Assembly (NCBI GenBank): GCA_964016885.1
Contig: OZ024742.1
Span: 159,278,001-159,342,000 of the forward strand
Direction of reading: 5' to 3'
Source: Eledone cirrhosa
Taxonomy: Eukaryota
Length of the DNA: 64,000 nt
Below are positions 49,574 to 59,697 of the stretch, one piece after another (positions within the stretch are counted from its first letter, which is position 1; every line of letters starts with the position of its first letter). The position numbers and the translations under genes were made by a program. The notes beneath the pieces are model-generated. The model saw only the letters and a list, made by a program, of their open reading frames with translations, was not told the DNA's origin and did no database searches.

Positions 49574-49649
49574 CTCCTGTTGATAAGCCCTCAGTGGTAT
49601 AATTCGACACTTAATTTGTGGCGAAACATGCTTACTGCATGTCCAGGAG
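49574..49649 (+). ncRNA. Type I hammerhead ribozyme with U3-A8 variant core
   Basis: CUCCUG-UUGAUAA-GCC...GGC-GAAA-CAUGC(UUACU)GCAUG-UC-CAGGAG: 6-bp stem I, 6-bp stem III, GUC site. Confidence 0.82.
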
Positions 49650-50097
49650 ATATAGTTATAAAAGAACGGTCTGTACATTTTAATTTATCCTTTTAATTCT
49701 TATGTACTTCCCATTCTGTTCGTAGATTATATGATTTTCTGGTGGTATTACATCCCCTATAATTGAACACATACCTCGTTGTGTATTTTTCTCTATATAC
49801 TGTCTTATAAAGAGCCCGGTGTAAATTCTTTGAGCTCATTAAATTATAGGGGTTAATGTGAGTCTTTAGTTATATATATATATATATATATATATATATA
49901 TATATATATATATATATATATATATATATATAGAGAGAGAGAGAGAGAGAGAGAGAGAGAGAGAGAGAGAGAGAGAGAGAAATAGCCGTCGAAACGGCTT
50001 GAGCTCTGCCGTCGGGGTCATACTTTTTCATATATATATATATATATATACATATATATATATGTGTGTGTGTATGTGTGTGTGTGTGTATATATAT

Positions 50098-50430
50098 AAG
50101 GAAAAAAGATGAAATCGAAATGCCAATGGAGTCTTTTTAAGAATATTTTTTTGTTTCTTTACCAATTTCGCAGTTCTTAAAATTGAGATGGAGGGTATGT
50201 GGTTTTTCTCGCATCTGTGATGCGAGATGCGTGAAAAACAATAAACGCGCCATCTCAATTCTACTTTTGAAAAGCATAAGAACTGCGAAACCAGTAAAGG
50301 AACCTAATAAATATTCTTAAAAAGATTCCAGTTGCATTTTCGATTTCAGCTTTTTTTTCTTATAGTTTCACTCGTGTAGGACATCTCGTATTTTTTTCAT
50401 TTTGGAAAAAAAAACTCATTTTGCTATTAT
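50098..50430 (+). mobile_element. Inverted PLE-type mini insertion with U3-A8 HHR (50264-50299)
   Basis: Arms ~50098-50190 and 50250-50362; CUU-UUGAAAA-GCA..UGC-GAAA-CCAG-UA-AAG. Confidence 0.65.
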
Positions 50431-50499
50431 ATATATATATATATATATATATATATATATATATATATATATATATATATTATATATATATATCCACCA

Positions 50500-51760
50500 G
50501 TCTTCTCCCGTAGGATCTTCCTCATCGGCTCAACACTGCTACAATTTACCGTGAATCACCTCTTGACTTTCGTCTAAAAAATATTTTCCGATTTTTTCCG
50601 ATCTTCTCCCATTTTTTCCTAATTGCCTTTGTCCCTATTTTGATTTCCTTCTCCTTTGTATTATATTTTTTGCATCTTTCTGTTTCCCTCCCTTTGCTGT
50701 CCACCTTTTTATTGTTTTCTTTTTGAGTTTTTTATGACCATCTCCCCCTGGACACTCCGTTCCCACCATGCCTAACCTGAAATCCTTCCTCCACCAACAC
50801 CACACCCGCCTCAAATAATTCCTCACTTCTCTCCTCCCGCCCTGCTACCTCCTCTTCGTTAAGACCCGTTATTCCAGCCACAACCAATTCCTCAGCCGCT
50901 GCCTCCATTTCCACCTCATCCCCTACAGATTCTGACTCCACTTCCACACCTTCCCCCTCTCATCACCCCCCAATCCAACACATTCTCACCCGCTCACTCC
51001 GGTCCTCCCTCGCTACCATCCACAACCTCGACCGCAACCTACCTCAAACCCTCCTTCGCCTCCTCTCCACCTGTCACACCCCCCTCGCCCACTCCATCAT
51101 TCTCTTCATCCATGACCTCAACCACGATCTCTTCTCCTTTCTCACCTCCACCAAGCTCCACAAACTCAACTCCGTCATTTCATCTAGAGGATTACCTCCC
51201 TTCCCTCGTCCACGCCGCCCTCACCCGCCCCGCGCCATCCACCCATTCGCCGTTTCCTTTTCCTCCTCACCTACCCCGCCACCCTATCCCTCCTAAGAAA
51301 CATCCTTCGCCTCTTCCGATACCTCCAGTCAGACCCCCCACCTCCCTCCCCCATCTTCCCCCTCACACCTCACCTATCCTTCAAACGCGCACGCAACCTC
51401 CGCAACCTCCTCATCCACAGCTTCCTACCCCCCCCCCCCCCCCGGATCCTTTCCCTGCTCCCGACCCCGCTGCAACACATGCCCCTATATCACCAACACC
51501 ACTACCTCTCTGTCCGGCATTCCTTTCGGTGCACGTCCTCCAGCCTTATCTATGGACTCCGCTGCACGGAGTACCGGGCGACCTATGTCGGACAGACTTC
51601 GTTCGCAACTTGACCGTCTGCGGCCTGATTGTGTGCCCTGGAACCCCCGATGCACTACTTAGGACTGAACAACGCAACATCTTCCAGTTACAGACATGCA
51701 CCCCCTCCCCTGGTTTGGGATATGGCGCATGTCTCTCTGACACCCTTAATTTAACTTTGG
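50500..51760 (+). pseudogene. Internally deleted Neptune-like PLE (N-terminus joined to thumb, Zn-linker and endonuclease remnants)
   Basis: ...RYLQSDP...SFKRARNLRNLLIH...PGSFPCSRPRCNTCPYI...EQRNIFQLQT in shifting frames; RT core absent. Confidence 0.65.
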
Positions 51761-52316
51761 ATATATATACGGCCCCTTAATTGTAGAGCTAACTCAGTTG
51801 AAAGGACTCGGCTGCTATTTCTAGTTGTCGATAACCCTATTCACGCCACTGGGATGAAGCTGGTACGATGTGTGTATTTTTAAAAAATGCAACACGTGCT
51901 GCTAGTCATTCGCAGATTTGAATTTGCTGTGTAAACACAGATAGTTAAATCTTCTCCCGTGTTGAAAATCCGTATTTTTGACTACTGTGGTTTACCGATC
52001 GATTGATGGTGAAATATATTTCTTTAATGAAATATATACAAGGAAGGTTAATCAATGTATAAGGTATCTATATTTAAAGTTCCAGTTAAACTTTAATTAG
52101 TTACCTACCTAGCTATGTGTGCTTACACACTTTTACAAATTATTGCCTGTGATTGTTTCATATGTTTATTTTAGATGTATATATATGTCAATCAATTTCT
52201 AGTTTATATATATATATATATATATATATATATATATATATATATATATATAAAGAAGAAAAGATGAAATCGAAAATGCAACTGGAGTCTTATTTAAAAA
52301 AAAACTTATTTGGTTC

Positions 52317-52355
52317 CTTTACCGGTGGTTTCGCAGTTCTTCTGCTTTTCAAAAG
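52317..52355 (-). ncRNA. Minimal type I hammerhead with U3-A8 core
   Basis: CUU-UUGAAAA-GCAG(AAGAA)CUGC-GAAA-CCACCGG-UA-AAG. Confidence 0.65.
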
Positions 52356-52741
52356 TAGAGTTGAGATGGAGGGTCTGTGGTTTTTCTCACATATATATAT
52401 ATATATATATATATATATATATTCGGCAGACGCGAAGGAGTGAGTGGTCTTGATAAACGCTAATGAAGGAGAAACAGGGCTGTCGATCACTCTCCTTTGC
52501 TTTTGCCGAGAATAAGTAAATGACATAGTCATTACTTTAAAACTCATAGCGAATTGTCTTCAAAAGGTTTTCAATTAAACATACAGTATATTGCCAAACA
52601 TACTATGTTTGCCAAATATACATACATTCATGTGTACATCGCTATTTCAGAACACCAATACTAATATATATATATATATATATATATATATATATATATA
52701 TATATAATATAAGATCAAAAGATGGTTAAAAGAGTTCCATG

Positions 52742-52806
52742 TATTTTATTATGCGCATTTCAAAAACAAGTATCATCATGAGATGACGTTTTCGTCAGAT
52801 AAAATA
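52742..52806 (-). ncRNA. Type I hammerhead ribozyme in the inverted pLTR
   Basis: Identical to 56620-56684. Confidence 0.8.
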
Positions 52807-57900: not shown

Positions 57901-58104
57901 TTTTATACCATCATACCGTTTAACCATGTTGTCATCTTCAGTCGATGGTCTCTTAGGTTCAATAAAACACAAGAAAACTTAAATGACACTTCACGTATTG
58001 CTTGTATTAAATTAGTTAATAGCCTACGTGGTGACTTCTATCTTGTTGCTAGACTTGTTAGAAATAACAGCCAAACTTTTCAAATCATACCCTACCACTG
58101 TATA

Positions 58105-58300
58105 AAATATAATTGTTTCTACTTTTGGCACAAGGCCAGCAATTACCCAGTGCATTACTGGTACTTTATTTTATCGACCCCGTAAGGATGAAAGGCAAAG
58201 TTAACCACGGCGGTATTTGAACTCAGAATGGCAAGGGCCGTAACTCTATACGTCAAAGCATGGCGTCCGAATCTCTACCGATACTGCCAATCCACAGCCC
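58105..58300 (-). mobile_element. tRNA-derived SINE
   Basis: Close match to 35380-35550. Confidence 0.8.
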
Positions 58301-58592
58301 TATATAAAATATAATGAAAACACATTGGATAAAGTAGTTGGAAAACGCATTCTATAAAGGTAAAGATGAGATGGTCACAGCTGGTATTCTATTGATAACG
58401 TATGGTTAGTACTAAATTTGGTACGATTCAACGAAGTGACCTTTAACTGGTTGCTTGATTTGTTAGAAATAGCAGCCAAAATCTCCTTCCAAACACACCA
58501 AAGACGAGATGGTCACAGCTAGTACGTTTTAGCTCATAGATTTGTACGATACGTACATCATGGATACATACACACACACACACATATATATA

Positions 58593-58692
58593 CAGGGTGC
58601 CCCCTTCCCCTCCAAATGTGTGTTGATTACCTGTACAGACAATATCTATTAGAATGCTGTTGAAGTGTGTATACATTTTTGGGGACACACTG
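58593..58692. mobile_element. Tc1/mariner-type MITE
   Basis: TA-CAGGGTGCCCCC...GGGGACACACTG-TA. Confidence 0.6.
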
Positions 58693-58712
58693 TATATATA
58701 TATATATATATA

Positions 58713-59120
58713 TAACAAAGAAATTGTGGTAAGGAACCAGATGGACCATAAAGCACCAGAGTACTCAATACTTAGGGTAGTAGAGTGGGAAATAGGAAAA
58801 AGTATGACCCCGACGGCAGAGCTCAAGCCGTTTCAATATGCTCTATGCATATCACTTTCAACGCTTAACCGCTCCACTCAATCCCCTATTGTTCTACAGG
58901 CAAGTTCAGCCACGCCTACCTCCCTCCAAATGCCATGATAGACTTATTTGTGTTTACAACAAATTTTAACCAATCCTCTTGACAACTACAATCTTCCCAT
59001 ATAAGGAAGTACTCCTTGACAAGTTCGGGTATTTATTCACCAGGTTAAAAATTCCACTTTAGTCCAGAAATAGTCGTCGAAACGGCTTGAGCTCTGCCGT
59101 CGGTGTCATACATTTTCCTA
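58713..59120. mobile_element. Inverted PLE pLTR pair (family of 2066-4738) with U3-A8 HHR at 59011-59106 (+)
   Basis: ACUCC-UUGACAA-G..CGGGUAUUU...AAAUAGUCG.C-GAAA-CGGC..GCCG-UC-GGUGU. Confidence 0.75.
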
Positions 59121-59140
59121 TATATATATATATATATATA

Positions 59141-59697
59141 ATACATTATAAAGAAATAAGAAACAATAGATATAATTAATAAGATATACCACACCCAAAT
59201 TCCTTATTAGTCCTCGACTAGGTAGTTTCGTGGCATATTATGCAAAAACACTACATCATCACAGTGATACAGTATTTTTGTGAGGTTTGCCGACTTATCA
59301 AGAGGATACCTCATTAAAAGTTTCAAAACACATTCGTAGGACGCGAAATAGAATACCGAAAGGCGGAGGGGGAGTCAATCACGTGATATAGCGGTCAAGA
59401 AACAGAGCTAAGCCTCTTACAAACAAGAAAAAATACCGCAAAAGGCGGCGGGGTATTTATATCAAAGCCATAGAAGAGATGGCTAGGATGGTGAGAAGTA
59501 TAAGTAATGATAGCTTTCCAGCAGTCACTACACTTCAATGGTTAGTCTACCATAGGGAGTTATAAACAATATAAAGAAATACACAGATACATGCGAACAT
59601 ATACATATACATGAATATATCCATATGTTTTGGCATAATATGCCACGAAACTACGTAGTCGAGGACTAATTAAGACATTTTTCTTTCTTTATAATGT
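59141..59697. mobile_element. Inverted PLE-type insertion, separate family
   Basis: Arms 59141-59245 and 59625-59697 share ttagtcctcgacta.gtagtttcgtggcatattatgc. Confidence 0.7.
59211..59306 (-). ncRNA. Type I hammerhead with U3-A8 core
   Basis: UCCUC-UUGAUAA-GU(C)GGCA...UGCCAC-GAAA-CUACCUAG-UC-GAGGA; the other arm has the perfect palindrome CUACGUAG. Confidence 0.78.

Follow-up and report, generated by a model that had tools for sequence, protein, structure and literature searches.

Why should several unrelated repeat families, lying close together on one contig, all carry a hammerhead ribozyme in which the core pair between positions 3 and 8 is U-A rather than C-G? The question is raised by 64,000 nt of the Eledone cirrhosa genome (GenBank assembly GCA_964016885.1, contig OZ024742.1, positions 159,278,001 to 159,342,000; this whole stretch is referred to as the window below). 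Here the original prediction, made from the sequence alone, had placed four type I hammerheads with UUGAnAA cores and differing stems between positions 49574 and 59306. We find that these are real type I hammerheads in which U3-A8 is the state of the family, not a product of decay. We further consider it likely that they belong to four Penelope-type families, each fixed for the compensated U3-A8 pair, and that they serve to cut the tandem transcript of the element.

All four predicted motifs are present at their positions. Each has stems I, II and III in type I order around a core of the form N3 UGA N N8 A, with GAAA and UH completing it, and the stem sequences of the four are indeed unrelated. 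The family A hammerhead (49574-49649, plus strand) reads UUGAUAA at 49580-49586, with C17 at 49643 and 6-bp stems I and III. Family B occurs twice, at 50264-50299 (plus; UUGAAAA, U3-A8, 3-bp stems I and II, palindrome broken) and at 52317-52355 (minus; U3-A8, 3-bp stem I, a 3-nt duplication in loop III). Family C lies at 59011-59106 (plus; UUGACAA, U3-A8, of a subfamily with C at position 7), worn by mismatches in stems I (U·U) and II (G·G), and family D at 59211-59306 (minus; UUGAUAA, U3-A8). A strict type I descriptor, run across the window with positions 3, 7 and 8 left free, returns four motifs, namely A and D plus two canonical CUGACGA copies of a further family (E), and a looser setting adds two copies of family C with the core CUGAGAA. 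The window copies of B and C listed above are too worn for the strict descriptor and are recognised through their families, where the intact hammerhead form is seen. In 25 block dinucleotide shuffles of the window there was no U3-A8 match, and matches with any core averaged 0.04.

Is U3-A8 then a property of each family, or did U3 and A8 arise as separate neutral changes in copies of families whose consensus is CUGAnGA? Searches of the 3.0-Gb, AT-rich genome with DNA queries that excluded the core (top 30 loci each for A, B and D) recovered UUGAnAA in 22 of 28 rows for A, 40 of 44 for B and 27 of 32 for D; the remaining rows are 5'-truncated or single decays, and none reads C3-G8. Exact patterns with positions 3, 7 and 8 left free match 6,219 times for D (99 of 100 matches listed being U3-A8 and one U3·G8), 11,885 times for B (99 of 100 listed U3-A8) and 9 times for A (9 of 9). 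For C, a pattern in which U3 was fixed matches 894 times, with A at position 8 in 98 of 100 matches listed and G in none, while position 7 takes all four bases among the matches listed. Together these are 19,007 exact matches, a lower bound. No C3-G8 majority appears in either the family rows or the pattern listings, and CUGAnGA is therefore not the consensus of these families. A Watson-Crick 3-8 pair is present in A, B, D and most of C, and is missing from a C3·A8 subfamily of C.

Conservation tells a similar story. We compared the majority rows of diverged subfamilies, setting core and stems against the rest of the alignment after removing pattern-fixed positions by hand count. Core and stems differ at none of 25 positions in D, compared with 47 of 235 elsewhere (p = 0.005); in C, they differ at none of 27 between the subfamilies with U and with C at position 7 (59 of 194 elsewhere, p = 1e-4), at none of 27 between the former and the C3·A8 subfamily (42 of 202, p = 0.003) and at none of 27 between the C3·A8 subfamily and the one with C at position 7 (18 of 201, p = 0.09). 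In C and D, core and stems have thus stayed frozen while the subfamilies diverged. Compensatory changes in stem II are seen in a fifth U3-A8 family, whose period is about 320 nt and whose tandem spacings are 315-327 nt (loci L129, L130, L238 and L272). There, 4 pairs changed on both sides (8 cells, 9 sequences); the 9 aligned sequences are what remained of 12 blast rows once a partial row and two duplicates of a single locus had been dropped. Its covariation score was reached in 0 of 500 shuffles, although relatedness alone can produce such a score.

What kind of element carries these motifs? As predicted, the families are distinct and comprise both PLEs (Penelope-like elements) and retrozymes: two (B, C) are protein-coding PLEs and two (D, A) are units without an open reading frame (ORF). 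Judged by its motifs, the family B hammerhead sits in the 3' pseudo-long terminal repeat (pLTR) of a young, intact Neptune-type PLE. A protein search gave 150 near-identical matches, many with 775 open codons, and in the 20 loci that we fetched, picked for long open frames or top score, the core lies about 1 kb downstream of the ORF and in sense in all 20 (18 by a strict regular expression, 2 by a shorter anchor). The 775-aa product combines RVT_1 with a C-terminal GIY-YIG domain and has DKG and a CX4CxxC linker, which satisfies CX2-5CxxC; the GIY-YIG core holds a cysteine pair. A 409-codon ORF1 lies upstream in another frame, and we take ORF1 and a frameshift to be linked to Neptune, the clade of B being assigned from motifs only. 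Copies are found in tandem and inverted, and the 6-nt stem III is palindromic, of the dimer type. In the window, the motif at 50264-50299 falls within a short inverted pair of 3' pLTR fragments of this Neptune-type PLE (about 50098-50430), and that at 52317-52355 in a solo pLTR fragment flanked by two (TA)n tracts.

The family C hammerhead lies in the 3' pLTR of a Hydra-clade PLE, a call made by motifs, with trees that comprised only sequences of this genome. It stands in sense 0.67-1.27 kb behind the end of the ORF; an inverted copy is found on the 5' side, and the flanks consist of (TA)n. The ORF encodes a reverse transcriptase (RT) followed by a C-terminal GIY-YIG domain without an internal cysteine pair; CCHH is absent, CxCX5C is found in 8 of the 9 loci scanned, and DKT and RWR in 2 of 9, the two that reach furthest 5'. 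The hammerhead has a long stem II and a long, stable stem III. The copy at 59011-59106 belongs to such a 3' pLTR and is partnered by an inverted partial pLTR at 58718-58834.

Family D is, by its repeat organisation, a non-LTR retrozyme: a 591-nt unit without an ORF, whose matches recur at a spacing of 591-595 nt in tandem and in inverted arms, with up to 5 units in a row, and without a PLE match in any of 6 array loci. The window copy at 59140-59622 belongs to an older subfamily, 76-79% identical to the young unit, and an inverted partial copy lies near 59630-59700. Family A is likely another non-autonomous unit, old and ORF-less, with copies about 70-90% alike. Its period of about 485 nt is deduced from downstream sequence that recurs upstream, no tandem of A with two hammerheads having been seen. 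The window fragment spans about 49566-49868 and ends at a (TA)n tract. In both D and A, then, the tandem unit is non-coding and contains a single type I hammerhead. No RNA holder is listed for the D unit; contigs from three runs cover it, two of them each with a single one-unit contig of 620-621 letters, which a tandem array would yield just as a circle would. A search for homology linking D to the C3-G8 tandem family at locus L176, whose stem III is similar, found none.

There is a simple scenario that would tie these features together. In B and C, cleavage would fall 0.7-1.3 kb behind the RT-endonuclease ORF, in the 3' pLTR, where the motif lies in sense. In D and A, with one motif per unit, it would release monomers, which the enzyme of a PLE may copy back, as their tandem and inverted insertions in (TA)n suggest. 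The palindromic stem III of B and D suggests that these hammerheads likely work as dimers, while the stable stem III of A and C could let them act as monomers. U3-A8 would probably cleave more slowly than C3-G8 and would be tolerated rather than tuned.

A number of observations weigh against this picture of catalytically active, pair-fixed families. In one type III scaffold, only a G3-C8 swap rescued activity and the other single and double core mutants remained low (PMC9901934; of this and the other cited works we refer throughout to the portion of text that was available). A subfamily of C with about 300 matches carried the C3·A8 mismatch while spreading. A driver ORF for A and D, sought by tblastn around their copies, was not found, the few PLE matches being inconsistent in side and strand. 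For B, the conservation comparison falls short of significance (0 of 30 in core and stems versus 25 of 385, uncorrected p = 0.14; a stem I position that differs between B subfamilies was excluded), and the stems of A to D are invariant, not compensating, with no stem covariation seen in these four families. Among minimum free energy folds of individual window copies, stems I and III form together only in the family C copy at 4538-4660, and A, C (59011) and D prefer other structures, so that we do not use the folds as support. Finally, a search of Rfam gave no hammerhead among 150 matches listed of 172, but the canonical window copies were missed too, which makes the result uninformative.

How widespread is the variant, and how did it come about? 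We sampled the genome in 120 evenly spaced stretches of 10 kb (1.2 Mb). A descriptor requiring G-C closure of stem II found 14 U3-A8, 11 C3-G8 and 1 C3·A8 motif in the first 800 kb (0-2 in shuffles), and without the closure rule the full sample gave 18 U3-A8, 41 C3-G8 and 1 C3·A8 among 60 (four shuffles: 0, 0, 0 and 1). Positions 3 and 8 form a Watson-Crick pair in 59 of these 60 matches even though both were left free. By eye, 5 U3-A8 families stand beside about 15 canonical ones. The resulting U3-A8 share of 30% is rough, since matches are clustered in tandem and inverted copies; scaled up, it implies some tens of thousands of U3-A8 motifs in the genome as a rough total. The expectation that U3-A8 is a common form in this lineage therefore holds as far as abundance goes (18 of 60, and at least 19,007 exact matches), but it is a minority form beside the canonical core (41 of 60).

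Core state can be set against RT for those families that were met in the sample. A tree built from the Hydra-type proteins of this genome places family C in a single group with strong support, separate from the C3-G8 families (E of the window, and L178); the family B protein is very different from that of C, and C has C3-G8 relatives in its own clade. An ORF related to that of B (58% identical) lies in L176 just downstream of C3-G8 tandem hammerheads, a link that is positional only; the hammerheads of that locus (L176:7166-9627) are two canonical motifs 528 nt apart, directly upstream of the Neptune-type ORF. Given this deep difference between the PLE proteins of B and C, and the C3-G8 relatives of C, it is likely that U3-A8 arose at least twice, or that pLTRs were exchanged. 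Each origin would take two transitions, one from C to U and one from G to A, by way of a tolerated mismatch state in a genome that is AT-rich. With both changes leading toward A/U, drift under AT pressure with compensation would be the simplest account.

The original prediction had raised another explanation, namely tuning to slower cleavage; U3-A8 would then be adaptive in that full-length or multimeric RNA lasts long enough to be copied. The variant is held in the youngest families of highest copy number (B with 11,885 and D with 6,219 exact matches), U3-A8 activity below that of C3-G8 in one scaffold is implied by PMC9901934, and unprocessed RNA is the main insertion substrate of a Poseidon PLE in vitro (PMC11167929), all of which speak for this view. 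However, canonical cores are in the majority in the same genome, the Hydra relatives of family C included, and both base changes would follow the AT mutational direction anyway; we therefore regard tuning as unlikely.

The C3·A8 subfamily of family C bears on the question from a different side. With C3 fixed, the family C pattern has 299 exact matches, and among the matches listed 99 of 100 have A8 and 1 has G8; with 18 close pairs among the 100 listed, the number of insertions would come to about 250. The Hydra ORF remnants in these copies are 87-90% identical to L232, and in the tree the copies form a radiation of short, similar branches. At least three sets of linked variants can be told apart among 39 copies, and the mismatch was therefore present in more than one source element. 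In the best rooted tree, C3·A8 is nested among the U3-A8 subfamilies (87/82). Monophyly of U3-A8 within C is not rejected (approximately unbiased test, p = 0.068), a result weakened by the position of L165, the intended outgroup, which fell inside family C. The subfamily thus likely derives from U3-A8 by a change of U3 to C, a half-step between two paired cores, which suggests that the 3-8 pair swaps by drift through a tolerated mismatch, and its spread points more to relaxed constraint on the pair than to tuning. In the window it is represented by an inverted-repeat insertion (2064-4734) with hammerheads at 2079-2174 (minus) and, as its inverted partner, 4550-4645 (plus, CUGAGAA), and with Hydra endonuclease remnants (3181-3578) between the arms; neither hammerhead was part of the original prediction. 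Elsewhere, a single C3·A8 hammerhead (L167:4763) and a U3-A8 hammerhead (L142:3181) have the same palindromic stem III, and here the mismatch may mark a subfamily or CpG decay.

Might the 3-8 pair flip repeatedly between C-G and U-A in PLEs, through a mismatch, with the C3·A8 Hydra subfamily as an intermediate kept through several rounds of retrotransposition while its other catalytic bases and stems stayed intact? We put this forward tentatively, as a possibility that may well prove wrong. The subfamily would then offer one of two things: a natural hammerhead able to cleave although its positions 3 and 8 form no Watson-Crick pair, for instance assisted by the element's protein or through a protonated A-C wobble, or natural proof that for PLEs the fold is required and the cut is not. 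A literature search for hammerheads with C3-A8 or with G8A/C3U found none; subscription papers lay mostly outside that search, which makes it weak evidence that the form is unreported.

One may go further and imagine that all these motifs are kept as folded RNA signals, for protein binding or template definition, with catalysis weak or dispensable, so that positions 3 and 8 drift because cleavage hardly matters. The C3·A8 subfamily, unpaired in nearly every match listed and yet spread over several sub-lineages with ORF remnants, is what this would predict. In the Poseidon PLE, mismatches at 3-8 abolish cleavage, which needed protein, but insertion in vitro persisted in hammerhead-dead mutants, with no reads ending at the cut site (PMC11167929), results that fit a C3·A8 subfamily in which the cut is less strictly needed; Naiad PLEs, moreover, spread without a canonical hammerhead (PMC8557442). 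If cleavage hardly mattered, however, we would not expect the other catalytic positions (U4, G5, A6, A9, G12-A14, A15.1-U16.1 and H17) to be fixed across diverged subfamilies, nor the pairing at 3-8 in all but one of the sample matches, a pattern that selection for an active fold would produce, and we consider this account quite improbable. That the motifs are chance matches or separately decayed canonical hammerheads, to which the worn and poorly folding window copies of B and C might seem to point, is refuted by family rows and pattern listings fixed at U3-A8 without a C3-G8 majority, and by shuffles that yield 0-1 matches against 60.

Families fixed for a compensated U3-A8 pair, with hammerheads predicted to cleave, thus remain the reading that we prefer. 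The variant itself, and its escape from a canonical descriptor, had already been published (PMC4209133), so that U3-A8 in PLE hammerheads is not a discovery of this locus; the families described here are further examples, common but in the minority. The new detail is the ORF-bearing subfamily of family C, fixed for the C3·A8 mismatch in several sub-lineages. The original prediction was right that searches based on CUGAnGA pass over these cores: a census restricted to that form loses roughly a third of this genome's motifs, among them those of an abundant retrozyme and of the youngest PLE. Families B and C make it directly testable whether PLE transposition needs the hammerhead to cleave. In family C, a single scaffold occurs naturally with U3-A8 (and any of the four bases at position 7), with C3·A8 and, in a rare copy, with C3-G8; family B supplies many intact young elements.

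Other features of the window provide context. Family E, canonical and yet inside the very interval covered by the original prediction, which omitted it, belongs to a Hydra-type PLE remnant (52699-56727) with identical inverted pLTRs and ORF pieces at 53556-55433 (plus); its C3-G8 hammerheads, both CUGACGA, lie in the inverted pLTR copy (52742-52806, minus) and in the 3' pLTR copy, sense to the ORF remnant (56620-56684, plus). A further canonical C3-G8 hammerhead, minimal and with a palindromic stem III, is found at 48497 (minus). Short palindromic insertions in (TA)n at 5879-6094 and 41996-42211 consist of two inverted 3' halves of the family C pLTR and hold half hammerheads without the core. 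A Neptune-type endonuclease remnant at 10533-11045 is 56% identical to the family B ORF, and near it, canonical hammerheads at 12483 and 12962 on the minus strand, 479 nt from one another, are possibly another tandem unit. A C-rich decayed element at 50490-51800 contains a stretch resembling GIY-YIG (51506-51607; 35% identity with the family B endonuclease) and is probably a further PLE; no hammerhead was found in it. Three tandem copies of a unit with an internal 37-nt tandem repeat (59700-62060; spacing 861 and 648) are unrelated to the hammerhead families, and long open frames of 970 and 912 codons at 23040-25949 and 27515-30250 (minus) belong to retrotransposons of the long interspersed nuclear element (LINE) type.

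How do these families compare with known systems? The closest precedent is the Cercyon PLE of Schistosoma mansoni, where about 1,300 U3-A8 hammerheads, missed by the first descriptor, accompany about 2,000 canonical ones, and where minimal PLE hammerheads are weakly active in vitro (PMC4209133). The core swap, the location in pLTRs, the many copies and the palindromic stem III of the dimer type are shared. Unlike Cercyon, a Hydra-clade PLE, a Neptune-type PLE and ORF-less retrozymes have the swap in one genome, in tens of thousands of copies; A and C have a long, stable stem III, and a C3·A8 subfamily goes unmentioned in the available part of that paper. Family C resembles the Hydra clade as described in PMC8557442 in DKT, an RWK-like RWR, CxCX5C, a GIY-YIG domain without internal cysteine pair, (TA)n targets and a 3' hammerhead, but departs from it in its U3-A8 or C3·A8 core and long stems II and III, all 26 of 26 rows for Hydra hammerheads in File S2 being C3-G8 (CUGAnGA). 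Family B shares with the endonuclease-bearing Neptune and Nematis PLEs of the same paper DKG, CX4CxxC, the cysteine pair in GIY-YIG, an upstream ORF1, tandem and inverted copies and a minimal palindromic hammerhead; placed among them by motifs alone, it differs in its U3-A8 core. Family D, and likely A, are like metazoan non-LTR retrozymes (PMC7229834, bioRxiv 10.64898/2026.07.22.740005) in that their tandem units lack an ORF, contain a single type I hammerhead apiece and occur alongside autonomous PLEs, but the D unit, known here from DNA, is longer (591 nt versus a typical 150-450) and has a U3-A8 core and PLE-like inverted arms. Finally, natural compensatory covariation to U3-A8 has been described, with in vitro activity given by citation (PMC3088659); the available text of that paper has few examples, whereas here the variant makes up about 30% of the hammerheads detected in a single genome.

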